From contig VGWF01000001.1 in the NCBI GenBank assembly GCA_016873715.1, forward strand, positions 394 to 64,393: a DNA stretch of 64,000 bases. Direction: 5' to 3'. The notes beneath the pieces are model-generated. The model was not told where the DNA came from and did not search any database. It saw nothing but the letters and a program-made list of their open reading frames with translations. The position numbers and the translations under genes are program-made. Of the stretch, positions 333 to 54,236 are shown in pieces (the first letter of the stretch is position 1; each line of letters opens with the position of its first letter). The DNA comes from Lentisphaerota bacterium. GTDB taxonomy: Bacteria > Verrucomicrobiota > Kiritimatiellia > PWTM01.

Positions 333-563
333 ACAGCGAACATCGAACATCCAACATCGAACACCGAACATCGAACGGCGGACGATCAACATCCAACAAC
401 CAACAACCAACATCCAACAACCAACAGCCAACAACCAACAACCAACATCCAACAACCAACAGCCAACAACCAACCGCGAACACCGAACATCGAACAACGA
501 ACATCGAACATCGAATGGCGGACAGCCAATAGCCAACACCCAACAACCAACGGCGAACAACGG
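331..563. repeat. Heptanucleotide tandem repeat (SAACANC)n of ~33 units. Blocks of GAACATC and CAACAAC are interrupted twice by GGCGGAC.
   Basis: Read directly: 'gaacatcgaacatccaacatc...caacaaccaacaaccaacatccaacaacc...'. It lies between the stop at 332 and the GTG start at 614. Confidence 0.9.
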
Positions 564-7700: not shown

Positions 7701-7930
7701 TGCGGATGCCGGAGGCCGAGCGCCGCGTGCTGGCCGCCTGGGTCGACCTCACCGCGCCCTACCGGGGCGACGAGGAGATCCGCGCGCTGCCCGATCCCGA
7801 CTTCCCCGGCATCGGGGACCTCCCCGTCCGCCCGCGCGTGCGCACCGCGCCGGTGATCGACCGCTTCAACCTGCCCCAGGACGGCGTGGCCAGGGCGATG
7901 TCCGCATCCGCCGGAAAGGCGACGCCATGA
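4760..7930 (+). CDS. Secreted multidomain protein, paralog 1. It has a signal peptide, a LamG/ConA-like domain, a PD40/TolB-like beta-propeller and two CxxCH motifs ('GCVGCHE', 'RHCGACHQGDGKGRKAFDVT', PSCyt1-like).
   Basis: ORF 4670..7930. The GTG at 4760 overlaps the IclR stop (GTGA), and a signal peptide follows it. Conserved blocks are shared with the genes at 7927 and 45528. Confidence 0.85.
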   Translation: MNSAIPAFAACAAAVLAAAAPPSRPHPIVAWLPPESLPSEPATRALTPDEAAAALERDWLFQCDGRPSRGAVEAEIRRARRIATALADGPARSVASSALERLAAIEASLKDPAVPRCVPPRPDGIAGRWSFEGTDDEVSAFRPLGSWVFVDGVFANGVALGGGAYADAGAQAHGVFAGSYSVTAWIRTSSDEADVIGTGVGRDHVLLMAFRGVVRGHHWTAGGANVIDGKTPLADGAWHHIAQVVDGTTIRLYVDGKPDGEQPFKGRAAVPPAPLLIGARSMDPASLRSRFQGEMDEILLLGRALGADEIAGPHAAGRAALEASAGASREPYLAVRRIKRDLMVRDPAVDFSRVVFIDQPYPQGAEWAHEARHRNGTMAVPGGRLLTLEGLHPGGTVRKLAPADGPAAFWRPDVSFDGRRVLFCMKPAAEKAFHLYEIGADGKGVRRITDGDYDDLDPIYLPDGRLLFSTSRANTYVRCMPYTYAYVLARCDADGRNLYVVSPGNEPDWLPSLLNDGRVIFTRWEYTDKALWRIQSLWTMNPDGSSLSAFWGNQSVWPDMLVEPRAIPGSRRVMFSGCGHHDWFGGPIGIVDPAQGFNFPDGLTKVTADVPWAECGPPPVDPVESAAYEPAGRFGAYKTPYPLSDRLFLVSARTGGLNTPRDKQPGSFKLYLMDVDGNRELIHEGAFNILHAMPLRPRPAPPVIADRVEWPGTGPDRKPAAPGVLFSGDVIQGPTRIPRGEAKWLRVVAMDAKTYSSWIREEMPHQHSGPAVSLLQADGVKRIVSEVPVEADGSVNFEAPPGVALHFQLLDGGRRAIQTMRSFVGVMPGERRGCVGCHEMHSVAQVNARGAALERAPSAMTPPPWGADTTLGYERSIHPILERHCGACHQGDGKGRKAFDVTLRPGLGIFKEPYVTLVGGSLYHGPKSLEPPATIAGCLPVETWPTAGAPEGVRTFPPMTWMSRTSRLVNHYASGAHHAEVRMPEAERRVLAAWVDLTAPYRGDEEIRALPDPDFPGIGDLPVRPRVRTAPVIDRFNLPQDGVARAMSASAGKATP

Positions 7931-10900
7931 GAATCGCCTCTTCCGGCCGACACGGAGGTCGGCCCTCCGGCCCGTCGGCATGCCGTTCGGTTTCGCGACT
8001 GGAGGGCCGGGCTCTGTCCCGGCCGTTCCGGTCCGGGGCGCTCGCCGCGTTTCTCAGCCTCGTCGCCGCGGTCGCACCCGCGGCGGAATCGGAAGCCACC
8101 GGTGTCGCGTCGCCGCTGCCCCCGCTGGCGGTTCACGTGAAGCGCGACACCCTCGCTGCGACCCTGCTCGCGAGCCGCGCCGCGCTGGCCGCATGGCGCG
8201 CGGAGCAGGCCGCCGTGCGGCCGGGGCTGGTGTGGGGCCCGTGGTCCGTCAGCGCGGCGGGCAAGCCCGACGCGCCCGCCCCCGCGGTCGATCCCGCGGC
8301 GAAGGACGCGGAGGGCGCGCCCCTCTGGCAGCCGCGGGCCGGATGGAAGGACGGCCAGTTCCTCCCGCTGGTTCCTGCCGGGCAGCCGAACGCGCCCGCG
8401 ACCGTGTGGCTGACGCGAACCGTCGTCGCCTCGCGACCCGCGACGGTGACCGTCGGCCTCGGCGGTGGCGACCGGATCGAGGTGCGGATCAACGGCACAG
8501 TCGCGCACACGCTCGACACCCGCGCCTGCTACGAGCGCTATGGCTGCAGTCTCGCGACGGACACGATCCACGCCGACCAGGTCATGGTGGGTTTGGCGCT
8601 CCCCGCGGGCACGAACCGGCTGACCCTCGGTGTGTCGCAGTCCGACATCGGGCGCCAGGCCCCGTTCCGTCTGTGGTTCTCCTCCGCGCCGAATCCCGTG
8701 CCGCACCTCTGGCAGCGCATCCGCCGCGACTTCCCGCCGTCGGGCCATGCGTTGCTGGAGGCCGTGCCGTACCCGTGGTTCGAAGCCGGGGGCTGGTTCG
8801 ACGCGGACGATTCGCGGCTCGAACGCGCGTTCGTCGCCGATGTCGCGGCCTCCAACGCGCCGCTCGCCGCGCTGCTCGGCCCGCCTCTCGCCGCCCTCGA
8901 GTCGGCGAAGGCCCCGGCCGGCGACCCCCGGTGGCTCGACCTTTGCGTCACCGCCGCGGAGCAGGCGCGGGCGGCGGACCGGCTCGGCCGGCTGGCGGCG
9001 GCGGTGGCGGAACTCGCGCGTTCGCACCCGGCGTATCCGGCGGATCGTCTGCTTGGCGAGATCGACGGGCTGCGCTCGGCGGTTCTTCGCGGCGAGCCGT
9101 CGCGCCCCGCGGTGGACGCCCTCGCGCGCCGCGCCCTGGTGGACGAGAGCCCGCTGCTGAAGGGGCGGAAGCTCCTCTTCTCCCGCCGGTACACGTACGA
9201 CTCGCGGCATTACTACGACGACTACTACGCGGGCCTTCGCGAATGGGGCGGGAACCTCTGCGAACTCGACCCCGCCACGGGCAAGGTCCGCGAGATCGTG
9301 CCGAAGCTCGCGGGCGGTATCTTCGACCGCTACGACCTCTCGCGGGACGGCCGGCGCGTCGTCTTCGGGTATCGCGCGCCGCGGCCCGAGGGCTTCCGCA
9401 TCTGGGAATGCCGCCTCGACGGCTCCGGCCTGCGGCAGCTCACGGCTCCGCCCGCCGACGAGCCGGAGCGCATCGCGCGGCACGCGGGCTACACGCGCGA
9501 GGCGATGGAGAAGGACCCGCGGCTCTACGGTCACTGGACCGACGACCTGCACCCGTGCTACCTGCCCGACGGCCGGATCGTCTTCGTCTCGAGCCGCTCC
9601 GAGCGCAGCGTCCTGTGCGGCGGGCACCCGCTGACCTGCACGACGCTCCACCGGATGGATGCCGACGGCCGCGACCTGCACGAGCTTTCGCAGGGCGCGC
9701 TGACCGAGTCGACGCCGACGCTGCTCGACGACGGCCGCATCCTCTACACGCGCTGGGAGTACGTCTACAAGGGCATTGCCGCCGTCCAGTCGCTCTGGGC
9801 GATGCGTCCCGACGGCACGGCCTCGGAGGAGATCTACGGCCACAACATCGACAACCCCGGCGTCTTCTTCGCCGGCCGCCAGATCCCCGGCGCGCCGGAC
9901 CGCGTCGTCGCCGTCGGCTGCGGCCACGAGCCGCTCGCCGTGGGTTCGATCCGCGTGATCGACCGCGCGAAGGACCGCCGCACGAAGGACGCGATGACGA
10001 GCCTCACGCCCGAGGTCGAGACGCGAAACCTCCGCGGGTTCTTCCAGTACCGCAACGGCCGGTGGAACGCGGAGGACGTGTACGGCCCGTTCTATACCGA
10101 CCCGTACCCGCTCTCGGAGCACTTCTTCCTCGTCTCGCACAACCCGTCCTCGCGGTACAACGACCGCGACGCCTACGGCATCTGGCTGATCGACACGTTC
10201 GGCAACCGCGTGCCCGTGTATGACGACCCGGAGATGTCCTGCTTCCAGCCGACGATCCTCGCCCCGCGCGCCGCGCCGCCCGCGCTGCCGCCGATGATCG
10301 CGGACGAGGCCGCGACCCACGGCGAGGCGACCGTGCTGCTGGTGGACCTCCACCGCGGCTTCACCAACGTCGCGCCGGGCACCGTGAAATACCTGCGCGT
10401 GATGGAGCAGATCCCGCGCTCGTGGGCGGCCTCGCAGGTGCAGCCGGGCGACGGCATCCCCGGCCAGACGACCGCCGTCTCGCTCAACACCCACATCTGG
10501 ATCGGCGTGCTGCTCGGCGTCGTCCCGGTCGAGGCGGACGGCTCGGCGTTCTTCCGCGTGCCGGCGCGGCGCAACCTCTACGTCACCGCGCTCGACGGCG
10601 ACTTCCTGGAAGTCCAGAAGATGCGGACCTTCGTCAACTTCCAGCCCGGCGAGACGCGCTCGTGCGTCGGCTGCCACGACCCGCGCGACGGCACCCCCGT
10701 CACGACGCGGCCGCTGGCGATGAACCGCGCGCCCTCGGCCATCGCCCCGCAGCCCGGCGACGCCGGTCCGCGTCCGATCCACTATCCGTCCGACGTCCAG
10801 CCGGTGTTCGACCGCCACTGCGTCGCCTGCCACGGCGGCGACAAGCCGAAGGGCGGCCTCGATCTGACCGGGGAGATGACGACGCACTTCAACCGCTCCT

Positions 10901-30179: not shown

Positions 30180-30264
30180 CGAAGTCCGCCTCGCGCGACG
30201 ATCACGGGACGTCGCGGCCGGCACGCATTCAGGCGCACGCGGCCGCGGTCCGCGGTCGCGGCGA

Positions 30265-30471
30265 CTACAGCTCGCGGGGCATGCAGAGGCTGTCGGATCG
30301 CTTCGCGGTGCGCCCGCAGCCCTGGCAGATGAACTGCGCGTCCTGGACCAACGCCTTGTACTCGGCCCGGTGCGCGTAGTGGAACCCCTCGTACTGGAGG
30401 TAGCAGAGGTGTTCGGTGTGGGTGCCGCACGTGCAATCCCGGTTGTGGTCCTTCTTGGTCTCGCCTTGCAT
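30265..30471 (-). CDS. Small Cys-rich protein (68 aa; 'DCTCGTHTEHLC...FICQGCGRTAKRSDSLC'), possibly zinc-ribbon-like.
   Basis: GC3 is ~90%, typical of real genes here; a 'gggagg' RBS lies ~8 nt upstream of the ATG and there are 7 Cys residues. It is the 3' part of the track ORF 30265..30900. Confidence 0.4.
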   Translation of the reverse strand: MQGETKKDHNRDCTCGTHTEHLCYLQYEGFHYAHRAEYKALVQDAQFICQGCGRTAKRSDSLCMPREL

Positions 30472-30694
30472 CCCGCGCCTCCCGCCCGACGGTTGGTCTC
30501 GAACGTCGGGACTGCGACCAGTGTACGTTGCGCCGCGAGCCGCCGCAACGCGCGGGGTTCGACCGCGGCGGGACGCCGCACCGGGCGGAGTCACTCCCGC
30601 ACCGACCGCCGCCCGGTGTCCCCGCGCACCGCGCTCCGATAACGGCGGCGATGGAGCCGTGACGGGAGGTCGAGGCAGGGCCTGAGCATGGACC

Positions 30695-30734
30695 GCATTG
30701 CCGCGACCATCGGTCGCGGCTACAGTCGCCCGCG
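30695..30734 (+). promoter_or_regulatory. Conserved 40-bp palindromic motif A (GCATTGCCGCGACC-at-CGGTCGCGGCTACAGTCG-cc-CGCG), 100 nt upstream of the sulfatase gene at 30834.
   Basis: Near-identical to 54197..54236. It contains TTGCCG-17-TACAGT and the inverted repeat GCCGCGACC/GGTCGCGGC. Confidence 0.4.
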
Positions 30735-30833
30735 AAGAGGGGGTGCCCGGCCCTCTGAAGGTCCGCGGGGGAGGATCCCGGATGGAACCGCCTCGCGCCT
30801 GTCGGGTCAGCCACGGGCGGTGTCGAGGCTCCC

Positions 30834-32672
30834 ATGAGACGCATGAGCGTGATGCTGGCGGTTCTCGGGTCGGTGGTGACAGGGGTGGCGTTGGCGGCAC
30901 CGAAGCCGAACGTTCTGCTGATCTACACCGACGACCACGGGTGGGCGGACCTGGGGGCGCAGGGGGTCAACGGGGAGATCCGGACACCGAACCTCGACCG
31001 GCTCGCGGCGGACGGGGTGCGCTTCACGCGCGGCTACGTCACGGCCCCGCAGTGCACGCCGTCGCGCGCCGGCGTCATCACGGGCATGTACCAGAACCGC
31101 TTCGGCGTCGAGCACAACGGCATCGCCATGCAGCGGGAGGTCGTGACGCTGCCCGAGCGGCTCCGGGACGCGGGCTACGTCACGGGGATCAGCGGCAAGT
31201 GGCACCTCGACGTGGAGAGCATCCCCGGCGGCGGCAGGCGGCACGCGGCGAGGCCGGACCTCGCCCCGATGCACCAGGGGTTCGACGAGTACTTCACGGG
31301 CACGATGCGGGACTACGAGGCCTCGCACGCGCTGGACGGAACGTCGTTTCCCGACGCGCCGAGGAAGGTGACGGAGAAGGGCTGCCGCGTCGTGATCCAG
31401 ACCGAGGCGGCGCTCTCGTTCCTCAATCGACGAGCGGCGAAACCCACCCAGCCGTGGTTCCTGTACCTGGGCTACTTCGCGCCGCACGTGCCGATGGAGT
31501 CGGCCGAGCCGTGGTTCTCGCAGACGCCGACGAACCTCCCGATGCTGCGGCGGCAGGCGCTGTCGCTGATCGGTGCGATCGACGACGGCGTCGGCCGCAT
31601 CCGCGCGCAACTCGGGGCGATGGGGCAGACGACCAACACGCTGATCTTCCTCATCGGCGACAACGGCGCGCCGCTCGGGAGCGCGTGGGACGGCTCGCTC
31701 AACCTGCCGCTCAAGGGCCAGAAGGGCATGCTCGCCGAGGGCGGCATCCGCACGCCCTTCGTCGCCGCGTGGCCCGGACGGATTCCCGCGGGGTCGGTCT
31801 ACAACCATCCTGTCATCAGCCTGGACGTGGCCGCCACCGCGCTGGCGCAAAGTGGTCATCACGCTCCGCGCGATGACTCGCTGGATGGTGTGGATCTTCT
31901 GCCGTTCCTGACGGGCGCGAAGGACGGCGCGCCGCATGAGACGCTCTACTGGCGCTGGATGACGCAGGCGGCGATCCAGGAGTACCCGCACAAGCTGATC
32001 ATCCTCGGCGACCGCGAGCGGCTGCTCTTCGACATCACCACCCCCGAGGGCGAGAACGTGGAGCGCAACCTGCTCGCAAAGGAGCCGGAGATCGCGGCGC
32101 GGCTGGAGAAGAAGCTGCTGGCGTGGACCGCCGGCCTGAAGCCGCCGGGACTGTCGACGAACTTCGACTCGCACCACGAGGGGCTCTTCGCCGAGCACGA
32201 GATCCTCAAGGCCGGGGCGCCGCCGGAGGGCGCGCGGCGCGGCGCCGCGGCGGAGCCGGGGACCGTCCGGGGCTGGCTGGCGCGCTCGGGGACGCTCGCG
32301 GTGAAGGACGGCGCCCTCGTTCTCGTGCCGGACGCCTCGGGCGGCCGCCCGTTCCTCACGAACGGCGGTCTCGACCTTCCGGGCCCGGCCTCGATCACGA
32401 TGCAGATCCGCGCCGCGGCGGGCGGGAAGAGCGCCGTCACGTGGCGCACGAAACAGCAGCCGGACTTCGTGCCGGCCAACAGCGCCGCCTTCGACTGGCC
32501 CGCCGGTCCCGAGTGGCGGGAGGTGAAGGTGGAGCTGCCCGTCACGGGCCGGCTGATCCACGTGCGGATCACGCCCGCGAAGGAGGCCCGCGGGATCGAG
32601 ATCCGGTCGATCGTCATCCACGGCGCGCAAGGGACGCCGCAGGTGTGGAACTTCGAAGAGAGCGGCACGTGA
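30834..32672 (+). CDS. Sulfatase (CTPSRAGVITGM) with the conserved C-terminal extension domain.
   Basis: Signal peptide; sulfatase motifs; C-terminal domain similar to those of 23966 and 43100. Confidence 0.85.
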   Translation: MRRMSVMLAVLGSVVTGVALAAPKPNVLLIYTDDHGWADLGAQGVNGEIRTPNLDRLAADGVRFTRGYVTAPQCTPSRAGVITGMYQNRFGVEHNGIAMQREVVTLPERLRDAGYVTGISGKWHLDVESIPGGGRRHAARPDLAPMHQGFDEYFTGTMRDYEASHALDGTSFPDAPRKVTEKGCRVVIQTEAALSFLNRRAAKPTQPWFLYLGYFAPHVPMESAEPWFSQTPTNLPMLRRQALSLIGAIDDGVGRIRAQLGAMGQTTNTLIFLIGDNGAPLGSAWDGSLNLPLKGQKGMLAEGGIRTPFVAAWPGRIPAGSVYNHPVISLDVAATALAQSGHHAPRDDSLDGVDLLPFLTGAKDGAPHETLYWRWMTQAAIQEYPHKLIILGDRERLLFDITTPEGENVERNLLAKEPEIAARLEKKLLAWTAGLKPPGLSTNFDSHHEGLFAEHEILKAGAPPEGARRGAAAEPGTVRGWLARSGTLAVKDGALVLVPDASGGRPFLTNGGLDLPGPASITMQIRAAAGGKSAVTWRTKQQPDFVPANSAAFDWPAGPEWREVKVELPVTGRLIHVRITPAKEARGIEIRSIVIHGAQGTPQVWNFEESGT

Positions 32673-32681
32673 TGAGCGGCG

Positions 32682-32706
32682 GGGAGGGTCGCGCCCCGCG
32701 CGACCG
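32682..32706. repeat. REP-like palindrome GGGAGGGTCGCGCCCCGCGCGACCG (copy 1), immediately after the sulfatase stop codon.
   Basis: 8-bp stem GGTCGCGC/GCGCGACC with a CCC loop; two further copies at 36962 and 37072. Confidence 0.7.
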
Positions 32707-32731
32707 CTCGATCGATGAGAGGAATCGACCA

Positions 32732-33997
32732 ATGAGGGCGGACAGGCTTGCGAGGTCCGTCGCCGCGGCGCTGGGGCTCGCGGCGGCTGCCGCCGGGGCG
32801 GAGACGCAGTACATCCTCTTCTGCCGCGCGCCGGGGCAGGGGATGAACCAGGCCCGGCCGGAGACGCTCGGCCGGGCGCAGTTCGAGGAGGTCCTTGCGC
32901 GCTTTCCGAACCGGCCGTCGGCGCCGGTGCAGACCGGGATCAGCTTCGTCTTCTCGCCCCTGCGCACGGCGCCGGAGACCACGGCGCGGGCGTTGGAGAC
33001 GTTCCTCGCGGCCGCGGAGTCGACCGAGACCCCGGTGGTCGTACAGATCGACCTCGAGCACTGGTGGGAGGCGCGGCCGGACCTCTGGAACTGGTGGGAT
33101 CCGGCGAAGCCCGGCTACGATCCCGCCAACCGCGCGAACGTCGAATGGACCGGCGGGTCGCCGGAGGACGCGGTGAAGATCGCGTGGCGAAACTGGGGCC
33201 GGGAGATCCGCATCCTTCCGCCGCCGAACCTCGCGAGCCCGCGCTACCTCGCCGCCTGCCGCGACGAGATCCGCCGCCTCGTGCCCGTCGTGATGGCGTG
33301 GCATGCGCGGCTTCCGGAGGGGCGAAAGCACCTGCTGATCGGGATCAAGCTCGGCCACGAGACCTCGATCGGCGTCAACGCCTACCACCATCCGGGCGGC
33401 AACGCGCGGCTCGACCGTCCGGCGGCGGAGGATCCCGTGCGGCCGCTGGACCCCGATGACGTGACGGCGCGCGGCATGGCGCCGCTCGGTTACGCGGCGC
33501 TCGCGACGCTCGGCGTCCGGACGAACGGCGCGCCGACCGAGGCGGACCTGCGCGACGTCGCCCGCGGTTACCTGGCGGGTCTCTGCGCCGAGGCGGCGAA
33601 GGCGGGCGTTCCGCGCCGGCTCCTGTTCGCGCACGGCGCCGGGTGGAAGGACGGCGAGCTCATCTACGACGTGCCCGTCAATCCGCACGCCTGCCCGGGC
33701 TGGAGCTTCTACAAGCACGCGGCCGATCCGCGGCGGGATGCCGGCGTGCAGCGGAACGTGGCGGCCTCCGACGCGCCGTTCTGGGCGGCCTGCGAATGGC
33801 TCTTCCAGGGGCCCCGCACCGAGGCGGCCTGGAGCGGCGCGCTCGCCGCGACGCTGGCCGACCGGCGCTGCCGCTACCTGTGCGTCTTCAACTGGGAGGG
33901 CATCCGCGCCCACGAGCCCGTGATGCGGGCGATCGACGCATGCCTCCGCGAGCAAGCCGCGGACCTGCGTTCGAATTCTCCCACGGGTGGATCGTGA
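32732..33997 (+). CDS. Hypothetical secreted protein (signal peptide MRADRLARSVAAALGLAAAAAGA).
   Basis: 421-aa ORF; an RBS 'gagagga' precedes the ATG at 32732; no recognisable family. Confidence 0.6.
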   Translation: MRADRLARSVAAALGLAAAAAGAETQYILFCRAPGQGMNQARPETLGRAQFEEVLARFPNRPSAPVQTGISFVFSPLRTAPETTARALETFLAAAESTETPVVVQIDLEHWWEARPDLWNWWDPAKPGYDPANRANVEWTGGSPEDAVKIAWRNWGREIRILPPPNLASPRYLAACRDEIRRLVPVVMAWHARLPEGRKHLLIGIKLGHETSIGVNAYHHPGGNARLDRPAAEDPVRPLDPDDVTARGMAPLGYAALATLGVRTNGAPTEADLRDVARGYLAGLCAEAAKAGVPRRLLFAHGAGWKDGELIYDVPVNPHACPGWSFYKHAADPRRDAGVQRNVAASDAPFWAACEWLFQGPRTEAAWSGALAATLADRRCRYLCVFNWEGIRAHEPVMRAIDACLREQAADLRSNSPTGGS

Positions 33998-34076
33998 ACG
34001 ACGCCCGCGCCACGCCCGCGGCAGAATGGGGGAATCGGAAACAGCCTGTTCGTGTGACCCGGATGGAGCCGCGACC

Positions 34077-36917
34077 ATGAAAACGCCGATCCTGTTCGCC
34101 GCCCTCCTGGCCGGGGCCTGCGCGGCTGCCGCGCCCCGGCCGCCGAACGTCGTGATCTTCCTCGTCGACGACCTCGGCTACGGCGACCTCGCGTGCCACG
34201 GCAACCCGCACGTGAAGGCGCCGAACATCGACGCGTTCGCGAAGGAGGCGGTCGAGTTCGCGAGCTTCCACGTCAGCCCCGTCTGCGCGCCGACGCGCGC
34301 CTCGCTGATGACCGGGCGCTGGAACTTCCGCACGGGCGTCGCCGACGTGTTCGGCCCGGCCGCGGTCATGGACGCATCCGAGGTCACGCTGGCCGAGCGG
34401 CTGAAGGCCGCGGGCTACGCGACCGGCATCTTCGGAAAGTGGCATCTCGGCGACGCCGGCGGGCATGCGCCCAACGCGCAGGGGTTCGACGAGGCGCTCG
34501 TCCACCGCGGCGCCGCGATGCGGCGGTACTTCGACCCGGTGCTGCTCCACAACGGTCGCGAGGAGCCGCGCACCGGCTACTGCATGGACATCTTCACCGA
34601 AGCGGCGATCGGCTTCATCCGCGCGAATCGCGAGCGGCCGTTCCTGGTCTATCTTCCGGCGAACCTGATCCACACGCCGCTGCAGGTCGCCCCGGAACTG
34701 GCCGCGGAGTTCGACGCGCTCGGAGTTGGCGACAGCACGAAGCGGATCTACGGGATGATCCGCAGCGTCGATGCCAACTTCGGGCGCGTGCGGCGCGTTC
34801 TGCGCGAACTGGACCTGGAGGAGAACACGCTGCAGATCCTCTTCGCCGACAACGGGCCGTGCTCCGGCTCCAACCCGGTCGACCGCCACGCGGCCGGGTT
34901 GCACGGGTTGAAGGGCACGGTCTACGAGAACGGCATCCGAGTGCCCTGCTTCATGCGCTGGCCGGCAGGCTTCCCCGCCCCGGCGACCGTGACGCGGCTG
35001 GCGGCGCACGTCGACATCCTGCCGACGGTGCTCGAGGCCTGCGGCGTCGCGGCGGCCGGCGGCCCGCCGGTCGACGGTCGCAGCCTGCTGCCGCTCCTGC
35101 GCGACCCGGCCGCCGCGTGGTCCGACCGCCTTCTGTTCCTCCAGTGGGACAGTGGTCAGGCGCCGCGCCGGGGCCACGCGTACACGGTGCTGACGGACCG
35201 GTGGAAGCTGGTCCAGCCGTGCGGCATGGACGCGCCGAACCAGAAGCACATCCGCGACCGCTACGCCGAGATGTGCCGGCTGCAGGGCCGCGGCGAGCGC
35301 AGCATCGAAGGGCCGCCGCGATTCGAACTCTATGACCTTGCCGCCGATCCGGGCGAGACGAACGACCTTGCCGCCGCGCACGCGGACGTCGTCGACGCGA
35401 TGAGAGCCCAGTACGACGCATGGTTCTCGGACGTGGCGGCGCGGTGGGCGCAAGCGCCGCCGGTCGCGGCGGCCGGCGCAACGGCGCCGCGGCCGAACAT
35501 CGTGCTGATCCTCGCCGACGACCTCGGCTACGGAGACCCGGGCTGCTACAACCCGAAATCGAAGATCCCGACGCCGAATCTCGACCGGCTGGCGCGCGAG
35601 GGCATCCGCCTGACCGACGCGCACGCGCCTGCGTCCGTATGTTCGCCCACGCGCTACGGGCTGCTCACCGGCCGGTACCCGTGGCGCGACCGGCCGCAGG
35701 GCGGGGCGCTGGGTCCCTGGGCGGCTCCCATCATCGCGCAGGACCGCCTGACGCTGCCGGCGATGCTGAAGCGGCAGGGCTACGCGACCGCATGCATCGG
35801 CAAATGGCACCTCGGCTGGGTGTGGCCGACGAAGGACGGGAAGCCGCCGACCGTCAAGCCGGATAACCTCGGGAACGTCGACTTCACGCGGCCGATTGCG
35901 CAGGGGCCGACCGCGCGCGGCTTCGACAGCTACTTCGGCACCTGCGTGCCGAACTATCCGCCGTACTGCTTCATCGAGAACGACCGCACCGTCGGTCTGC
36001 CCGGCGAGCCGAGCGACGAGTTCGAGTTCCCCGGGCCGAAGCTCCCGGGATGGCGGCAGGTCGACATCCTTCCCGAACTGACCCGGCGGGCCGTCGCGAC
36101 GATCGGGCAGGCGGCGAAGACCAACGTCCCGTTCTTCCTCTACTTCGCGCTGACATCGCCGCATCACCCGCTCGTGCCGGCGTCCGAGTTCCAGGGCGGG
36201 AGCGGGGCCGGCGTCTATGGCGATTTCGTCGTGCAGACCGATTGGACCGTCGGACAGGTGATCGATGCGATCGACCGCGCGGGCATCGCGGGCAACACGC
36301 TGCTGATCGTCACCAGCGACAACGGTCCCGAAATCACGCGGACGAACGCGTTGCGCACCCGGAACGTCATGCCCATCGGCGCCTACGACCGCATCCGCGA
36401 GTACGGCCACGCGAGCATGGGCGACCTGCGCGGCGTGAAGAGCGAGGCGTGGGAGGGCGGCCACCGGGTGCCGTTCGTCGCCCGCTGGCCCGGGCGCATC
36501 CCGGCCGGGACGACCCGCGGCGATCTGCTGTGCCTGACGGACTTGATGGCGACGTTCGCCGCCGCTGCCGGTGCCACGGTGCCCGCGGGGGCGGGGGAGG
36601 ACAGCTTCGATGCGCTGCCGCTGTTGGTCGGCGGCAAGGGCACGCGCGACAGCGCCATCCTGCAGAGCGCGCGCACGGCTCTGGCCGTGCGAAGCGGCGA
36701 CTGGGTCTACATCAATGCCGCAGCCGGCGTGAACCCGGAGCCCGACGAGATCATGCAGGCGCGCGGCTACACGACCAACGCGATGCCGGACCAGCTGTAC
36801 CGACTGTCGGACGACCTGTCGCAGACGCGAAACCTCGTCGCCGAACACCCCGGGAAGGCCGCCGAGCTGAAGGCGCTTCTCGGGACGATCCGTGCCCGTG
36901 GCCGCCACGCGCCGTGA
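34077..36917 (+). CDS. Tandem di-domain sulfatase: two complete sulfatase domains in one polypeptide (CAPTRASLMTGR and CSPTRYGLLTGR).
   Basis: Two 'DDLGYGD' N-termini and two FGly motifs; the second domain is paralogous to the 16667 sulfatase. Confidence 0.85.
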   Translation: MKTPILFAALLAGACAAAAPRPPNVVIFLVDDLGYGDLACHGNPHVKAPNIDAFAKEAVEFASFHVSPVCAPTRASLMTGRWNFRTGVADVFGPAAVMDASEVTLAERLKAAGYATGIFGKWHLGDAGGHAPNAQGFDEALVHRGAAMRRYFDPVLLHNGREEPRTGYCMDIFTEAAIGFIRANRERPFLVYLPANLIHTPLQVAPELAAEFDALGVGDSTKRIYGMIRSVDANFGRVRRVLRELDLEENTLQILFADNGPCSGSNPVDRHAAGLHGLKGTVYENGIRVPCFMRWPAGFPAPATVTRLAAHVDILPTVLEACGVAAAGGPPVDGRSLLPLLRDPAAAWSDRLLFLQWDSGQAPRRGHAYTVLTDRWKLVQPCGMDAPNQKHIRDRYAEMCRLQGRGERSIEGPPRFELYDLAADPGETNDLAAAHADVVDAMRAQYDAWFSDVAARWAQAPPVAAAGATAPRPNIVLILADDLGYGDPGCYNPKSKIPTPNLDRLAREGIRLTDAHAPASVCSPTRYGLLTGRYPWRDRPQGGALGPWAAPIIAQDRLTLPAMLKRQGYATACIGKWHLGWVWPTKDGKPPTVKPDNLGNVDFTRPIAQGPTARGFDSYFGTCVPNYPPYCFIENDRTVGLPGEPSDEFEFPGPKLPGWRQVDILPELTRRAVATIGQAAKTNVPFFLYFALTSPHHPLVPASEFQGGSGAGVYGDFVVQTDWTVGQVIDAIDRAGIAGNTLLIVTSDNGPEITRTNALRTRNVMPIGAYDRIREYGHASMGDLRGVKSEAWEGGHRVPFVARWPGRIPAGTTRGDLLCLTDLMATFAAAAGATVPAGAGEDSFDALPLLVGGKGTRDSAILQSARTALAVRSGDWVYINAAAGVNPEPDEIMQARGYTTNAMPDQLYRLSDDLSQTRNLVAEHPGKAAELKALLGTIRARGRHAP

Positions 36918-36961
36918 GGCCGGGCGCGCGACCGGATCGTGCGCAACACCCGGGAGGGTCG

Positions 36962-36986
36962 CGCTCCGCGCGACCGGGGTGGCGCG
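36962..36986. repeat. REP-like palindrome GGGAGGGTCGCGCTCCGCGCGACCG (copy 2).
   Basis: Identical to copy 3. It lies between the convergent genes ending at 36917 (+) and 37112 (-). Confidence 0.7.
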
Positions 36987-37071
36987 GGGGCAGCGCGGCG
37001 GCCGCACCACGCGCCGCTGCGCGTCGAGTGGCAGGCGGAGTGCGGCTCTCCAAAAAGCGTTGGGAGGGTCG

Positions 37072-37096
37072 CGCTCCGCGCGACCGGTGGTTGGAT
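37072..37096. repeat. REP-like palindrome GGGAGGGTCGCGCTCCGCGCGACCG (copy 3).
   Basis: 110 bp downstream of copy 2, in the same convergent intergenic region. Confidence 0.7.
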
Positions 37097-37111
37097 CAGG
37101 TGCGGCTTACG

Positions 37112-39511
37112 TCAGGGCCCGCCGGCCGTCGTCCCCGCCTCGACCATGACCGTCCGCAAGAGGCCGCCGTCGGTGCGGAAGGTGACGGCGCCACGGTAGC
37201 GGGGGCGGTCGCGGCCGTCGTCGGCGATCGACACGCGCACGGTCGCAGGCTTCCCGTCCGCCGCGCCACGGTCCGGAGTGCACGTCAGCCACGGGCTGTT
37301 GGGATGGGCGCTCCACGAGGCGCCGGCCGCCGCCGGGATCACGACGCGCAACTCGCCTTCAACGCGCCCGCCCTTCGCCGGGGGCGCCAGCACGGTGCGC
37401 AGCGGCAGAACGCTGAGGCCATGGGGACGTGGCGGGAAGTCGGGTCCGTCGAGGCCGCTCTCGAGCGCGCCCATGTCCGGGGCCGCGCCGGCGAAGGCGT
37501 CGTTGAGGCCCGGCAGGCGGACGCCCGCGTCGAGGCCCGGCGATCCCGGGGCCAGCCGGAGATCCCCCTGCGCGGCCGCGACGAAGACCGGGGCGGACGT
37601 CACGGCATGCCGCTCGCCGCCGCCGGCCAGCTTCACGCCGCCGCGCGCGGTGAGGTCGTGGTCGAAGTCGTTGCGCGGGTCGGTGGACACGTTGGTCACG
37701 TCGCCCCCTCCGTCGCCGGCGAAGACGTTGTTGCGCGAGCGGGCGACGTAGGCGCCCCGGTTGCGGTCGTTGCCGAAGCCGACGCTGCGCAGGCCGCCGC
37801 CGGGGCCGTGGATCGTGTTGTGGACGATCACGTTCATCCCGGGCGACTGTGAGGCTCCGCCCATCTTGAACGCGGAGCCCGTCTTGCCGCGCTCCTCGCC
37901 CAGGCCGGCGATGAGGTTGCGGAAGACGTACGAGGGGCCGGCGCGGTTCGGCGCACAGCTCACGCCGCAGAGGGCGCGGTCGATCCAGTTGTGCCAGTAG
38001 CGGACGTTGATCTGCCCGCCGTCGAGCTCGGTGCCGTCGTCGTTGCTGAAGGCCAGCACGTTGCCGTGGATGTCCGTGTCGCGGTAGGGACCGCCGCTGA
38101 CCTCGCCGTTGGCGATGCTCTCGATCGCATCGTTCCACCAGCGCGCCTCGCAGCCGACGATGTCGTTCCGGCGGAGCACGTGGTTGCCGCCGGTGCGGTC
38201 GAGGATGATGCCCTGCGGCCCGGCCGGATGTCCGAACTCCCACGAGTTCGCGGTGCCTCGCGGGGCGTGGAGGAAGCAGTCCTCGACCACGATGCGGGTG
38301 CTGCCGTCGCAGACGCGGATGCCCGCCTGGAAGTTGATCACGCGCCCGCGTGCGTCGACGTACAGTCCGTCGGAAAGCCCGGCCTTCCGCGTGCCGGGAT
38401 CGCCCCAGCCGGCGACGTCGCAGCGGCGCACGCGAATCGAATCGGACTTCGCGATGCGGACCGCGTCGCGCCGGCCGCCGCGGATCGTGAAGCCCTCGAC
38501 CACGACGTACGCGGCGCCCTCGATCCGCACCGCGTGGTCGGTGTTCGTGCCCGCGTCGACCGGTGCGGCACCGGACGCGGGGCGGTAGGCGATCCATCCA
38601 TCGGGCCGGCCCTTCGCGTCGATCAGGATCCCGCCGTCGGGCCCGGGTGAGGGCAGGGGGCGGATCTCGGCGACGGGGACGTCCTCCCGCCAGGTCCGGG
38701 TCTCGAGTCGCAGGACGGACGAAGCCGGCTTCGCAGCGGCCGATGTGTCGATGAGGCGGCATTCGATCTGGTAGGCGGTGTCGGGGCGCAGGCCGAAGAT
38801 GGAGCCGCGGAACTGTCGGTCGGCCGCGCAGGGTTCGAGGTTCATGCCTTCGATCCATTCCTGTGCGCCCGTGGCGCGGTGGCGAACGGCGCAGGCGGCG
38901 GTCCCGGAGACCCCGCCGCGGACGTCGACGCACAGTCCCGCGCATTCGAAGGTGGGGACGGCCTGGCCGCCGGCGATGGACGGCGGTCCCGCCTCCGCCA
39001 GTTGCACGTCGCGGAACCAAACGGTCTGGCCGAGCGTGTCCGCGCGCTGCCGGAAGCGGCAGAGGATCTCGATCTCGTCCGCATCGTCGCCGGAGAAGGC
39101 GGCCTCGACGACGGTCCAGTCGGGGCCGCATCGTGGCTCCGCGGTGACGCGGCGTTGCTCGCGTCCGCCGCGGTGGAGCTTCACCTGGAGATGGGCGATT
39201 CCGGACTTGGTGCCGCGAATCTGTCCCGCAAGCACGTAGGCGCGGCCGGGCTGGAGGACCTTCACGCGCTGGACGATCTGTCCGTCGTTCTCCGCCGCGC
39301 GGCCGATGTCGACCCGCAGCGCCCCCTCCGCGGCATCCCCCGAGACCTTGTGTCCCGTGTCCACGATGCGCCACCCCGCGGGTGCGGCGGCCGGGGTGTC
39401 CCATGTCCGGAACGAGCCGTTGCGGACGAGGTTGGTTTCGCCGGCCGCCGTTCCGGCGGCCGCGACCAGCAGCAGGGGGATCAGTGCACGGCGGGTGAAC
39501 GTCTGTCTCAT
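37112..39511 (-). CDS. Right-handed beta-helix protein (pectate-lyase-like/polysaccharide lyase fold) with an N-terminal CBM-like domain.
   Basis: Signal peptide, CBM-like 'LVRNGSFRTW', then beta-helix repeats ('NVIVHNTIHG', 'RNNVFAGDGGG'). ATG at 39511..39509. Confidence 0.75.
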   Translation of the reverse strand: MRQTFTRRALIPLLLVAAAGTAAGETNLVRNGSFRTWDTPAAAPAGWRIVDTGHKVSGDAAEGALRVDIGRAAENDGQIVQRVKVLQPGRAYVLAGQIRGTKSGIAHLQVKLHRGGREQRRVTAEPRCGPDWTVVEAAFSGDDADEIEILCRFRQRADTLGQTVWFRDVQLAEAGPPSIAGGQAVPTFECAGLCVDVRGGVSGTAACAVRHRATGAQEWIEGMNLEPCAADRQFRGSIFGLRPDTAYQIECRLIDTSAAAKPASSVLRLETRTWREDVPVAEIRPLPSPGPDGGILIDAKGRPDGWIAYRPASGAAPVDAGTNTDHAVRIEGAAYVVVEGFTIRGGRRDAVRIAKSDSIRVRRCDVAGWGDPGTRKAGLSDGLYVDARGRVINFQAGIRVCDGSTRIVVEDCFLHAPRGTANSWEFGHPAGPQGIILDRTGGNHVLRRNDIVGCEARWWNDAIESIANGEVSGGPYRDTDIHGNVLAFSNDDGTELDGGQINVRYWHNWIDRALCGVSCAPNRAGPSYVFRNLIAGLGEERGKTGSAFKMGGASQSPGMNVIVHNTIHGPGGGLRSVGFGNDRNRGAYVARSRNNVFAGDGGGDVTNVSTDPRNDFDHDLTARGGVKLAGGGERHAVTSAPVFVAAAQGDLRLAPGSPGLDAGVRLPGLNDAFAGAAPDMGALESGLDGPDFPPRPHGLSVLPLRTVLAPPAKGGRVEGELRVVIPAAAGASWSAHPNSPWLTCTPDRGAADGKPATVRVSIADDGRDRPRYRGAVTFRTDGGLLRTVMVEAGTTAGGP

Positions 39512-39796
39512 GTCGCCCAAAATGGAGGGAATGATCTGGAAATGCAAGGGCCGGTCCGGACCGCAGATCATCGGCCCCGCATCGGAGATCAAGGACGGGG
39601 GCGCTCCGAGGGCCGGCTGCGCGGCGCCGACGGAGCGGCGCCCTCCAGGGGCATCTGCCGCGCGTCGATGGTTCGTCCTGATTGCTTCACGCGGGCCGCG
39701 CCCGCGGGCGCGGTGACCGCCGGGAACCGGGGCGGGGGGCCCCTTGCCGACTCATAGGCTTTGACGGATGGCGCGGTGCGGGTGCAGAGTGAGCCG

Positions 39797-45118: not shown

Positions 45119-45527
45119 CGGGCGCCGCATGCCCGCGTGGGACCCGCTTGGACGCCCGCCGCGACCGTGTATGACCCAGGACGCGCCGCTCATCGGTCCC
45201 GGCCCGGATCACGGAGCTTGCAGATCGCATCCGAGTTCAGTCCCTTGCCGGAACGGCGACGTGCCGGTTCCGTCGGAAGACCCGGACGACACATCCTTCC
45301 TCGACCTGCCGCAGCAACTCGCTGAACCTCGTCTGGCCTCGAATGCACCAATCTCCAGGGTCTTCATGCCGTCATCATCCGACGAACCAACCAGCTTCAC
45401 AACCAGTTGTTTCGAACCGGCCGGTGCGGGGGTCGCGGGGGCGGTGTCCGGGCATTGACCTTGCGTTGGCCTTGTGTTTGACTGATCGCATGAGCGTTGA
45501 CCTGTCAAATGACCGGCGGAGGCGGGC

Positions 45528-48425
45528 ATGACGCGGGCCGTGCTTCTCTTTTTGCTGTCGGCGGTCGCGGCGCGGGCCGGGGAGCCGTACCGTCCGCTGG
45601 CCTGGCGCGGGGATGCCGAGTGGTACGGGTCGGCGTTCTGGACGGGGCCGGACTGGACGCGGGTCGGGAAGGACTGGCACCACCCGGGGAACGACACGCC
45701 GAGCGTCCGCAGGTTCGAATGCCCGCGCGACGGGCGCGTGGCCGTCACCGGTCGCGTGGCGAAGCTCCATCTCAGCGGCGACGGCATCCGCGCGACGATC
45801 CGGCACAACGGGCGCGATGCGTGGACCGCGGAGATCGGCGGGACCGACGGCACGGGCGTCGTCCACCGCGTCGAGTTCGACGTGAAGGCCGGCGACGCGA
45901 TCCGTTTCGTCGTCCACAAACGCGGCCACATCGGCTGCGATACGACCGGTTGGGATCCTGTGGTTGTGTATGCGGACGGCGCGGCGTTCCGCGCGTCGGA
46001 GGCGTTTGCGGCCGCGAAGCAGGGCGGGGGAGGGTGGTCCTACGAGCAGGAGGGCGAGGGGACCGCGCCGCCCGCGGTGCCGGCTGCGGCCGCTCCGGAG
46101 CGTCCGTCCGCGCCGCCGTCCCCGGCGCTGTCCGCCCTCCTGGCCGCGCGGGCCGGCGAACTCGCGCCGGAGACCGATTCCGCGCTGCTCGCCATGGCGA
46201 TGGAGGAATGGTGGCGGGAGGACGGGCTCGACGACACGCCCGCGACGTACCGGGCCGCGGCAAGCAACCACCTGGAGCGGGTGCGCGCGCTCGCCTCGTG
46301 CGCCGGCGCGCCGCCGGCGGACGCGGACCGCCTTGTCGGAGCCGGGCCGCAGTCGCTCGACGACTGGCGTCTCCACTACCTCCGCGTCCGCGCCCTGAAG
46401 CGCTCGCTGATGATGGGCCGTCCCGAGATGCGGTTCGGCGAACTACTCGTGTGCAAGCGCCGCATGCCGTCCTACGCACACCTCGTCGCCCAGTACTACG
46501 GCTGGCGGCAGCGGGCGGGCGGGGGCCTCTACGCCGTGGCGCGGCCGGGACAGTCACTCGCGCTGCGCGACCTCACGGGCGGGCGCCTGCCGCCGGGCAG
46601 CTGCCTCGAGCCGCGCGTGCATCCGGACGGACGCCGCGTCCTGTTCGCCTTCGTCGCGTGCGACCTGACCACGCCCGAGCCGACCTCGCTGCCGGTGAAC
46701 GAGGCCGGGCCGGATGAGCGCTACTTCCACCTGTACGAGATCGCCGCGGACGGCACGGGCCTGCGCCAGCTCACGCGCGGGCCCTACGACGACATGATGG
46801 CCGACTACCTGCCCGACGGCGGCCTCGTCTTCTGTTCGACGCGCCGGAAGGGCTACTCGCGCTGCTTCGGGCCGCAGTACAGTCCGCGGTGGGACACCTA
46901 CACGCTGCACCGCGCCGACGGCGACGGCGGCGGCATCCGCACGCTTTCATGGAACGACGTCAGCGAGTGGTTCCCCGCGGTGGGGCACGGCGGCGAGATC
47001 CTCTTCGCGCGGTGGGACTACATCGACCGCGACGCGGTGACGCACCAGAACCTGTGGTCGTGCCGGCCCGACGGCACCAACCCGATGGCGGTCTGGGGCA
47101 ACGGCCTTCCGAAGCCGCACTGCACGTTCCAGGCGCGTCCGGTGCCCGGCTCGCACAGGCTCGTCTTCACCGCGTCGGCGCACCACTCGATCACGGCGGG
47201 GCCCGTGTGCCTGCTCGACCCGACGGTCGGCCTCAACGCGCCCGAGGCGGTCGAGCGCGTGACGCCGCTGCCGTATCCGGAGGCCGAGGGCTGGGCGCTG
47301 CCCGAGTGGTACGAGTCGCCGTGGCCGCTCTCGGAGGACTGGTTCCTCGCCGCCTACAGCCCGAAGCGGCTGCGGTCCGAGGGGCAGCACAAGAGCGACC
47401 CGAACCCGGATGACGCGCTGCGGATCGTCCTGCTCGACCGCCGCGGCAACCGCGAACTCGTGTACCGCGACCGCGGGATCGGGACCACGACGCCGGTTCC
47501 GCTCGCCCCTCGTCGCCCGCCCCCCGTGGTCGCCAGCGTCCTGCCTGCCGATCCGCCGCCGCACGGCGAGCTGACGATCTACGACGTCTACCGCGGCCTC
47601 GACGGCGTGCCGCGCGGGTCGATCGCGGAGATCCGGATCGTGCAGCTCTTCCCCAAGACCACGCCGGTCGCCAACGTGCCGCGCATGGGCCTGGCGGGCG
47701 AGGAGAACGGCCGCGCGATCCTCGGCACCGTGCCGGTCGAGGCGGACGGCTCCGCGCGGTTCCTGCTGCCCGCGCGCACGAAGGTGCTGTTCCAGGCGGT
47801 CGACCGCGACGGCTTCGTGCGGCGCACGATGCGCTCGTCGACCTACGTCCAGCCCGGCGAGGTCACCTCGTGCGTCGGCTGCCACGAGTACGGGACCACG
47901 CTGCCCTCGGCCGCCGGCGGCGCGCCCATGGCGATGCGCCGCGCGCCCTCGACGATCGAGCCCGGACTGCTGGGCGGGCGTCCGTTCGGCTTCGTCGAGG
48001 TCGTGCAGCCCGTCCTCGACCGCCATTGCATCCGCTGCCACGCCGGGGAGAAGCCGAAGGGCGGGATCGATCTCACGCGGGCGCCGGACCGCGGGTTCAC
48101 GCGGTCCTACTGGGCGTTGTGCGGCGACGCGGCGGGGCGTCCGACGCGCCCCGAGGCCGACGCGGGCGACCTCGTGCCGCGCTACCGGCAGCGCAACCAG
48201 ATCCAGATCACGCCGCCGGACGACCTGCGCGCCGCGCGGCAGAGCCGGCTGATCCGCATGCTGGCGGCCGCGTCCGGCCACCAGGGGGTGAAGGTGCCGC
48301 CGGACGACCTCCGCCGCCTCGCCGCCTGGATCGACCTCAACGCGATCTTCTACGGCGTCTACGACGCGCCCTCGCAGGCCCGCCAGGTCGCCGGCGACCC
48401 CGTCCCGATGCCGGACATCCGCTGA
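45528..48425 (+). CDS. Secreted multidomain protein, paralog 3. It has an N-terminal beta-sandwich-like domain, a linker, a PD40 beta-propeller and two CxxCH motifs ('SCVGCHE', 'RHCIRCHAGEKPKGGIDLT').
   Basis: An RBS 'ggcggagg' precedes the ATG at 45528. Conserved blocks are shared with the genes at 4760 and 7927. Confidence 0.85.
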   Translation: MTRAVLLFLLSAVAARAGEPYRPLAWRGDAEWYGSAFWTGPDWTRVGKDWHHPGNDTPSVRRFECPRDGRVAVTGRVAKLHLSGDGIRATIRHNGRDAWTAEIGGTDGTGVVHRVEFDVKAGDAIRFVVHKRGHIGCDTTGWDPVVVYADGAAFRASEAFAAAKQGGGGWSYEQEGEGTAPPAVPAAAAPERPSAPPSPALSALLAARAGELAPETDSALLAMAMEEWWREDGLDDTPATYRAAASNHLERVRALASCAGAPPADADRLVGAGPQSLDDWRLHYLRVRALKRSLMMGRPEMRFGELLVCKRRMPSYAHLVAQYYGWRQRAGGGLYAVARPGQSLALRDLTGGRLPPGSCLEPRVHPDGRRVLFAFVACDLTTPEPTSLPVNEAGPDERYFHLYEIAADGTGLRQLTRGPYDDMMADYLPDGGLVFCSTRRKGYSRCFGPQYSPRWDTYTLHRADGDGGGIRTLSWNDVSEWFPAVGHGGEILFARWDYIDRDAVTHQNLWSCRPDGTNPMAVWGNGLPKPHCTFQARPVPGSHRLVFTASAHHSITAGPVCLLDPTVGLNAPEAVERVTPLPYPEAEGWALPEWYESPWPLSEDWFLAAYSPKRLRSEGQHKSDPNPDDALRIVLLDRRGNRELVYRDRGIGTTTPVPLAPRRPPPVVASVLPADPPPHGELTIYDVYRGLDGVPRGSIAEIRIVQLFPKTTPVANVPRMGLAGEENGRAILGTVPVEADGSARFLLPARTKVLFQAVDRDGFVRRTMRSSTYVQPGEVTSCVGCHEYGTTLPSAAGGAPMAMRRAPSTIEPGLLGGRPFGFVEVVQPVLDRHCIRCHAGEKPKGGIDLTRAPDRGFTRSYWALCGDAAGRPTRPEADAGDLVPRYRQRNQIQITPPDDLRAARQSRLIRMLAAASGHQGVKVPPDDLRRLAAWIDLNAIFYGVYDAPSQARQVAGDPVPMPDIR

Positions 48426-54135: not shown

Positions 54136-54158
54136 CGCTGGAAGCCATGACGGCTGCA

Positions 54159-54179
54159 GCCGCGACCGAGGGTCGCGGC
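54159..54179 (+). terminator. GC-rich hairpin GCCGCGACC-gag-GGTCGCGGC immediately downstream of the sulfatase stop (no U-tract).
   Basis: Perfect 9-bp stem read directly; its half-sites are related to those of motif A/B and the REP copies. Confidence 0.4.
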
Positions 54180-54196
54180 AGGCCCCGCGCCCGTGG

Positions 54197-54236
54197 ACGC
54201 ATTGCCGCGACCGCCGGTCGCGGCTACAGTCGACCG
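54197..54236 (+). promoter_or_regulatory. Conserved 40-bp palindromic motif B (GCATTGCCGCGACC-gc-CGGTCGCGGCTACAGTCG-ac-CGCG), 90 nt upstream of the sulfatase gene at 54326.
   Basis: 38/40 identical to motif A at 30695. Confidence 0.4.

Follow-up and report, generated by a model that had tools for sequence, protein, structure and literature searches.

A probable family of GGAG-tagged repetitive extragenic palindromes in an uncultured Lake Tanganyika Verrucomicrobiota population

Introduction

To our knowledge, repetitive extragenic palindromes (REPs) and their transposases have been studied almost wholly in Proteobacteria. Here we describe a 25-bp palindrome, which we call REP-A, that occurs three times in a 64,000-nt stretch of DNA from a Lentisphaerota bacterium (NCBI GenBank assembly GCA_016873715.1, contig VGWF01000001.1, positions 394 to 64,393 of the forward strand), hereafter "the window". 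We consider it likely that these 25-mers belong to a REP family carried by a high-GC, uncultured Verrucomicrobiota population in Lake Tanganyika. As bacterial repeats go, the family is ordinary, and only its GGAG head, in place of the usual GTAG, sets it apart.

The most frequent REP tag is GTAG, a tetranucleotide directly 5' of the palindrome, and a REP together with an inverted REP (iREP), often in tandem, makes up a bacterial interspersed mosaic element (BIME) (PMC8266576, PMC3733652). The tag serves as a guide in the systems studied, where cleavage depends above all on the final two tag positions, A3G4 (PMC8266576). Reported tag variants are GYAG, GYRG, GTRG, GTMG and GTGG; GGAG is not among them (PMC3733652).

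In geometry, REP-A is closest to the REPs of Stenotrophomonas maltophilia (SMAG / GTAG-6 to -9; REPtron Sm, group 3 TnpA-REP), in which a 16-nt perfect palindrome split by 3 nt stands directly after the tag (PMC8266576). REP-A likewise has a G+C-rich 16-nt palindrome interrupted by 3 nt with a tetranucleotide directly before it (PMC8266576), and both systems have coexisting stem classes in one genome, dimers and clusters (PMC8266576, PMC2817692). They differ in tag (GGAG here, GTAG there) and host (Verrucomicrobiota here, a gammaproteobacterium there), and no cognate REP-associated tyrosine transposase (RAYT) was found here in the ~300 kb examined.

In organisation, the closest system is the REP/BIME system of Escherichia coli (Y and Z REPs; tandem BIME-2 clusters). 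There, as here, two REP types alternate in inverted orientation with short linkers and tandem reiteration, and they are extragenic, often between convergent or co-directional genes. However, E. coli REPs are longer and imperfect, with a required bulge and a strict GTAG, whereas here the 8-bp stems are perfect and the tag is GGAG. The roles of E. coli REPs include mRNA 3' protection, transcription attenuation, and binding of gyrase and integration host factor (IHF).

In taxonomy, the closest are the GTAG-17 to GTAG-20 repeats of Opitutus terrae, a member of Verrucomicrobia with an abundance of tagged REPs (Di Nocera et al. 2013; PMC3733652). Compared by description and not by sequence, the two have the phylum, multiple coexisting tagged REP families and common dimers in common. 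One O. terrae family has a degenerate tag with a GTGG majority, and many O. terrae REPs are intragenic (PMC3733652), whereas none of the REP-A copies that could be placed is.

Two further systems share parts of the design. The REPINs (REP doublets forming hairpins) of Pseudomonas fluorescens SBW25 (e.g., GTGGGAGGGGGCTTGCCCCCGAT) also have an inverted doublet as their unit, a short spacer and a G-rich head containing GGGAGG (PMC2817692), but their tag is GTGG/GTAG upstream of GAG, not GGAG, and they are tied to single-copy RAYTs. CGTC-tagged REPs (Rickettsia RPE-like, alphaproteobacterial) are also short tagged palindromes that form dimers; they have no linked transposase, carry another tag sequence and are, unlike REP-A, often intragenic (PMC3733652). 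The GGAG tag is the one difference that separates REP-A from the S. maltophilia, E. coli and O. terrae families alike.

Copies of REP-A in the window

The sequence GGGAGGGTCGCGCYCCGCGCGACCG occurs as three exact copies in the window:

32682..32706, + strand: REP-A copy 1; GGGAG head, stem GGTCGCGC, loop CCC, stem GCGCGACC, then G
36952..36976, + strand: REP-A copy 2; loop TCC; 35 nt past the double-sulfatase stop at 36917
37062..37086, + strand: REP-A copy 3; loop TCC; the convergent gene 37112-39547 (- strand) has its stop 25 nt away

The count stays at three when up to 3 mismatches are allowed, and 100 dinucleotide-preserving shuffles gave 0 matches. The bare palindrome, GGTCGCGC-NNN-GCGCGACC, is likewise perfect at three window places only; at 3 mismatches it has 15 matches against ~11 expected, i.e., background. 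A preliminary description of this DNA, made from the letters alone, was thus right about three copies and about the position of copy 1, but it put copies 2 and 3 each 10 nt too high.

In REP-A, a conserved single-stranded (G)GGAG head stands immediately before the hairpin, whose G+C stem is perfect over 8 bp and whose loop has 3 nt. Computed folding confirmed the pairing of GGTCGCGC with GCGCGACC that had been described, with a predicted minimum free energy of -15.7 kcal/mol as RNA and -10.8 kcal/mol as single-stranded DNA (ssDNA). At 25 nt and with a stable stem-loop, REP-A falls within the 20-50 nt range of REP palindromes.

The gene coordinates around the copies are the gene calls of matching metagenomes from the Joint Genome Institute (JGI):

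30834-32672, + strand: sulfatase
32732-33997, + strand: 421-aa open reading frame (ORF) without a Pfam domain
34077-36917, + strand: double sulfatase
37112-39547, - strand: carbohydrate-binding module (CBM)/beta-helix protein

Copy 1 is a single REP within an operon-like gene run: it begins 10 nt past the stop at 32672 and takes up most of the 59-nt gap between the sulfatase and the 421-aa ORF. Copies 2 and 3 both lie in the 194-nt gap between the convergent double-sulfatase and CBM/beta-helix genes, 110 bp apart, as had been reported. Each copy was also said to stand just after a sulfatase stop, which is so for copies 1 and 2 (10 nt and 35 nt) and not for copy 3 (145 nt).

No T/U tract follows any of the three copies, in agreement with the preliminary description. 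We therefore rejected intrinsic terminators as an explanation: REP-A lacks the U tract, and a terminator scan does not pick up the REPs. Between 29 and 41 kb, that scan returned 3 terminator-like sites against 3.3 expected from shuffles, none of them at a REP. A known RNA family was rejected as well, since an Rfam scan of the window matched only a tRNA.

Other tagged hairpins in the window

The preliminary description saw no other mobile elements in this DNA. That is not quite right, as the window holds seven more tagged intergenic hairpins of related families, four of them headed by GGAG and three by the canonical GTAG/GCAG:

7945..7968, - strand: GGAG-tagged hairpin, GGAG GGCCGAC ctccgt GTCGGCC; head-to-head pair with 8001-8024
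8001..8024, + strand: GGAG-tagged hairpin, GGAG GGCCGGG ctctgt CCCGGCC
39623..39646, - strand: GGAG-tagged hairpin, GGAG GGCGCCG ctccgt CGGCGCC; in the divergent gap 39548-39796; identical copies in L026 and L036
61550..61573, + strand: GGAG-tagged hairpin, GGAG GGCCGGC ctccgt GCCGGCC; 100 nt past the stop at 61450
30701..30723, - strand: family-B REP, GTAG CCGCGACC gat GGTCGCGG; in a 655-bp gap upstream of a sulfatase
54156..54178, + strand: family-B REP, GCAG CCGCGACC gag GGTCGCGG; first half of an inverted dimer
54205..54227, - strand: family-B REP, GTAG CCGCGACC ggc GGTCGCGG; second half of the inverted dimer

Here and below, L with a number denotes a locus or contig outside the window. 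The four GGAG hairpins have 7-bp stems that vary by compensatory changes around a conserved CTCYGT loop. Family B, (CT)GYAG-CCGCGACC-NNN-GGTCGCGG, has the canonical head and a further copy in L030 at ~1307; its dimer at 54156-54227 is predicted to fold as a single long hairpin (-66.3 kcal/mol, z = -8.1).

All 10 tagged hairpins are intergenic, though intergenic DNA makes up only ~8.5% of the window. Among the 57 GGAGGG sites of the window, a perfect hairpin of at least 7 bp starts at the GG in 7 of 10 intergenic cases and in 0 of 47 coding ones (Fisher p = 4.5e-7). Viewed from the hairpin side, a GGAG or GYAG tag stands on 10 of the 18 perfect intergenic hairpins. These counts indicate that head and hairpin belong together and that the element avoids genes. 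The head, GGAG, has G1, A3 and G4 in common with GTAG and is strictly conserved beside the hairpin.

Dimers and arrays

On Lake Tanganyika contigs, the 25-mer is usually followed after ~21 nt by an inverted GGGAGGGCCGCACTCYGTGCGGCCG (A'). The two make a tail-to-tail dimer with the GGGAGGG heads outward (L021, L023, L030, L031). The only four positions at which A and A' differ amount to two compensatory base-pair swaps, one from T8-A22 to C-G and the other from G12-C18 to A-T. The family also occurs as tandem arrays:

L019/L020: 6 units, period 96 bp
L036: 8 units, period 87 bp
L018/L032: 7 units, period 126 bp; partner GGAG-GGCGCCG-tgccac-CGGCGCC

The family therefore exists as singles, as tail-to-tail dimers with inverted GGGAGGGCCGCACTCYGTGCGGCCG and as tandem dimer arrays, and a REP plus an inverted REP with a short linker, reiterated in tandem, is the organisation that defines a BIME or REPIN.

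Dimers with outward heads could also be read as a MITE (a miniature transposable element with inverted repeats) of ~70 bp, with GGGAGGG...CCCTCCC terminal inverted repeats (REP-A plus inverted A'), moved by a DDE transposase, in which case single REPs would be broken MITEs. The heads do resemble terminal inverted repeats, the dimers recur with a ~21-nt spacer, and the L023 dimer folds as one long hairpin (-27.9 kcal/mol as ssDNA, z = -3.3). We nevertheless regard a MITE as quite improbable: the two ends belong to systematically different stem classes kept distinct by compensatory changes, spacer sequences vary, and there are several partner classes, including one with a 7-bp stem and a 6-nt loop. 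Single REPs exist, the presence/absence indel at copy 1 (see below) has no evident target-site duplication, and no DDE transposase is near among the Pfam-scanned ORFs.

The regular spacing (87, 96, 110 and 126 bp) might instead suggest a CRISPR-like array or a coding tandem repeat, and the three array periods (96, 87 and 126 bp) are all multiples of 3, which may be coincidence. We give this almost no credence and rejected both forms of it. In a CRISPR array the inter-repeat segments would be unique spacers, but here they are themselves repeats, conserved between units and containing the inverted REP; Rfam gave no match either. As for coding repeats, the periodicity in third-codon-position G+C (GC3) is lost over the arrays in frame plots, and units of 88 and 124 bp break the frame.

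The REP-A family's dimer organisation also bears on copies 2 and 3. Two further parts lie beside them, the first brought out by aligning window positions 36940-37100 to the intact dimers and arrays of L020, L023, L030, L031 and L036:

36999..37051, - strand: degenerate inverted partner iREP-A'; left arm CGGCCGCAC at 36999-37007, and GGAGTGCGGCTCTCC at 37037-37051
36926..36938, + strand: remnant 3' half of REP-A, GCGCGACCGGATC, directly past the sulfatase stop; assigned by similarity only

The iREP-A' begins at the normal ~22-nt spacing after copy 2 and is followed by copy 3. It is split, with 29 extra nt between CGGCCGCAC and the loop, right arm and head, GGAGTGCGGCTCTCC. The segment at 36926-36938 would be the leftover of another REP-A, and its GACCG+GATC junction also occurs in L018/L003 units. 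The 110-bp pair aligns to intact units with a split partner REP and is a decayed BIME (36926-37086 in all), with copies 2 and 3 and the split partner making up two units between convergent genes.

Two other repeat arrangements outside the window are worth recording. At L030 7800-8870, a tandem array of other palindromes (~150 bp x 7, including GTAGCC-CCGC-GGCTAC) has REP-A/A' elements on both sides and lies within a non-coding gap of 1.3 kb. In L026, the hairpin GGAGA-TGTCCTCACG-cggag-CGTGAGGACT occurs twice, 126 bp apart (11012-11041 and 11138-11167), in a 1.8-kb stretch without GC3 coding signal.

Copies outside the window

Exact protein matches of the window came from JGI metagenomes 3300020074, 3300020083 and 3300020084, among others, and these three are Lake Tanganyika samples (bioRxiv 10.1101/834861). 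A scan of JGI metagenomes for REP-A found at least 20 stretches, at least 11 of them from Lake Tanganyika. Both numbers are minima, as the contig of the window, with all three copies, is absent from the list.

As the preliminary description had supposed, the element exists elsewhere and not just here: the identical 25-mer occurs at 8 or more further extragenic sites on Lake Tanganyika contigs of matching composition, and in related Verrucomicrobiota/Kiritimatiellae metagenome-assembled genomes (MAGs). With Ga0163209 included, compositionally matching contigs hold at least 31 copies at 10 or more distinct sites. The tetranucleotide correlation of the Lake Tanganyika REP-A contigs with the window is r = 0.987-0.993; a true ortholog gives 0.995, and most unrelated matches give 0.64-0.96. 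These values are consistent with, and not proof of, the contigs coming from the same population as the window or closely related ones.

We also searched the GTDB representative genomes with the pattern, leaving the loop free, and 10 stretches matched. The window was not among them, so its source genome is not a GTDB species representative. Two Kiritimatiellae MAGs, one Verrucomicrobiota MAG and one unclassified MAG (L008) have one copy each, and a wastewater 'Deltaproteobacteria' MAG, JADJOY01, has 5 copies on 3 contigs. We read single exact matches in three actinobacterial genomes (Yinghuangia, Solirubrobacterales and Corynebacterium) as probable chance matches or terminator hairpins, since no second element is near them. 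No copy of the 25-mer was found in the viral contigs of IMG/VR.

The JADJOY01 loci (L004, L007, L010) and L027 carry GGAG-GG...CC hairpins in alternating orientation, with stems GGTCGCGC, GGGCACGC, GGCCCGCC, GGCCGCGA and GGCGCCG. REP-A in these loci is followed by a conserved GCGATCCGCGACGACG tail.

Every copy that could be placed, in the window and in related loci, is outside GC3-defined coding regions, as an extragenic element should be and as had been proposed. Arrays and singles alike are non-coding by GC3 frame plots, with real gene starts and stops at their flanks. The flanking genes elsewhere are diverse: they encode a PSD/PSCyt protein, a BNR_4 protein, a fucosidase, an aldo-keto reductase, a GFO/IDH/MocA oxidoreductase, an ABC permease, a MerR-B12 protein, a TRAM protein and one sulfatase. 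The association of REP-A with sulfatases is therefore incidental, as the window is simply rich in sulfatase genes.

This diversity of neighbours also tells against a regulatory role, in which the palindrome would be the operator for a dimeric regulator of a sulfatase/polysaccharide-degradation regulon. A perfect 8-3-8 palindrome would suit such a regulator, and two window sites adjoin sulfatase genes. However, the sites lie past stop codons and not at promoters, there are up to 8 tandem copies, at least 10 other sulfatase genes in the window have no copy, and neighbours elsewhere such as the fucosidase, ABC permease, aldo-keto reductase, MerR/B12 and TRAM genes do not fit the regulon. We find an operator very hard to credit.

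Orthologous sites

We used homologues of the 421-aa protein to find syntenic contigs of relatives and so compare the REP junctions between them. L034 keeps an intact REP at the copy-1 junction, altered in the loop alone, despite divergence of the coding sequence on its flanks. The REP of L038/L039 (90% aa identity) is short of 4 nt in the 3' arm. L040 (87% aa identity) has no REP at this junction, and 3 nt separate the genes, making a clean indel of ~56 nt with no evident target-site duplication. Downstream of the double sulfatase, a single mutated REP-A and an extra 183-aa ORF are present in L038/L039, and L040 carries other GGAG-tagged hairpins, whose stems are GGTCGCCG and GGCCCGCG. These intact, eroded and absent states show that REP sites are gained, lost and eroded over species-divergence time. 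Two outgroups (P0005 and P0008, 72-73% identity) have no GGAG REPs at their loci, but synteny is not conserved there, so they are uninformative for the copy-1 junction.

The 183-aa ORF (L038 9272-9823 / L039 5682-6233) has no Pfam match and occupies the position of the window's REP cluster.

One alternative needs no dedicated transposase. Hairpins selected by the host, as U-tract-less terminators or mRNA 3' stabilisers, could have multiplied by local duplication, gene conversion or recombination. Six of the 8 tagged window sites are downstream of a stop codon, canonical terminators are lacking, no RAYT was found in ~300 kb, and the CGTC REPs are a precedent for tagged palindromes with no transposase linked to them (PMC3733652). 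Yet a clean presence/absence difference of ~56 nt at an orthologous junction resembles insertion or excision, the same 25-mer is found at unlinked places whose flanks and neighbour genes are unrelated, the arrays and one window copy are in divergent promoter gaps instead of at 3' ends, and a terminator hairpin needs no conserved asymmetric head. We judge host-selected hairpins to be unlikely, though deserving of some weight.

Search for a transposase

A REPtron pairs a REP with a RAYT, an HUH/Y1 transposase (PF01797) whose gene stands between copies of that REP. A phmmer search with E. coli K-12 RayT against 2741 six-frame ORFs from the window and other loci gave no match at E<=10. Our Pfam scans covered 25 window ORFs, 40 mid-size ORFs and 10 REP-flanking ORFs. 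Y1_Tnp (PF01797) was not listed for the 65 window/lake-contig ORFs or the 10 REP-flanking ORFs, but only the top 25 families were listed for the 40 mid-size ORFs, so a weak match may hide there. No transposase of any kind was found among the Pfam-scanned window proteins.

Identity, spread and possible roles

The preliminary description took the palindromes for REPs, and the evidence supports this: a tag with a 16-nt palindrome split by 3 nt, extragenic placement, inverted dimers and BIME-like arrays. Several observations pull the other way. The search for a RAYT or Y1 transposase in ~300 kb was negative, although this is a weak negative; the head is GGAG instead of GTAG; REPs run to tens or hundreds of copies per genome, and the REP-A count comes from the 64-kb window and contigs; and related GTDB representative MAGs have only one exact copy each. 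In addition, six contigs from several samples agree exactly at the three window sites, which are fixed in the Lake Tanganyika population and so give no sign of ongoing movement. With these taken into account, we still hold a REP family to be the likely identity of REP-A.

If REP-A behaves like the REPs of the literature, its hairpin would extrude on ssDNA and be recognised together with the 5' tag by a RAYT. Spread would then be by cut-and-paste, carried out by a trans-acting HUH/Y1 enzyme of this type. GGAG could act in the role of the GTAG guide tetranucleotide, because it keeps A3G4, which in studied systems bear on where cleavage takes place. Slippage or recombination may make the arrays grow.

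By analogy, hairpins at the 3' ends of sulfatase transcripts might block 3'-to-5' exonucleases and so protect the upstream mRNA. They could also damp read-through into the next or convergent gene, as E. coli REPs do.

The GGAG-GG design is common to unrelated high-GC lineages, namely the Lake Tanganyika Verrucomicrobiota population and JADJOY01, which even have the same 25-mer. We tentatively raise the possibility, doubtful as it is, that GGAG-GG(N5-6)-loop-(N5-6)CC-G hairpins form a distinct REP super-family beside GTAG and CGTC, with BIME-like arrays and several coexisting stem classes that have diverged by compensatory changes, served by a RAYT or other ssDNA enzyme whose guide is shifted at tag position 2.

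REP-A does not reveal a new kind of element. It does add a well-defined REP/BIME system, that of a polysaccharide-degrading and uncultured lineage of Verrucomicrobiota, and it accounts for the only strong RNA structures at gene 3' ends in a sulfatase-rich, terminator-poor island. GGAG is a natural tag variant with which to probe the guide-tetranucleotide model of RAYT cleavage. In practice, the arrays can also serve as a marker when these MAGs are binned or checked for assembly breaks, as several contigs terminate in or near them.

Genomic setting and other observations

The window is ~71% G+C and nearly all coding. It is a polysaccharide-degradation island with at least 10 sulfatase genes, and its other proteins include BNR sialidase-like proteins, a GH32 protein, laminin-G/HZS-alpha haem proteins, a radical-SAM enzyme and an extracytoplasmic function (ECF) sigma factor.

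The 421-aa ORF downstream of copy 1 has more than 700 homologues at E<=1e-20, and the few that are named come from Limisphaerales, Prosthecobacter and Sedimentisphaerales. Between this ORF and copy 1, the 25 nt at 32707-32731 form a small hairpin whose loop shows the downstream gene's Shine-Dalgarno sequence, GAGAGGA. In L040, this segment is gone together with the REP.

Window positions 30180-30833, the 655-bp gap upstream of the sulfatase that holds a family-B REP, are a variable spot: relatives have toxin-antitoxin pairs, HicB/HicA (L038, 2556-2986) or Phd/ParE-like (L040, 1189-1703), at its counterpart. Another repeat, of ~30 tandem heptamers (AACATCC and variants), occupies window positions 339-551 in the gap between ORFs 3-332 and 533-1285, and a run of the same type adjoins the REPs of relative L040 (6539-6573).

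Finally, large paralogous proteins are encoded at 4472-7930, 8101-11832 and ~45513-48425, the first two with Laminin_G_3 and HZS_alpha matches in Pfam. All three share a conserved stretch of DNA (repeat family D17) that encodes a CxxCH haem motif.

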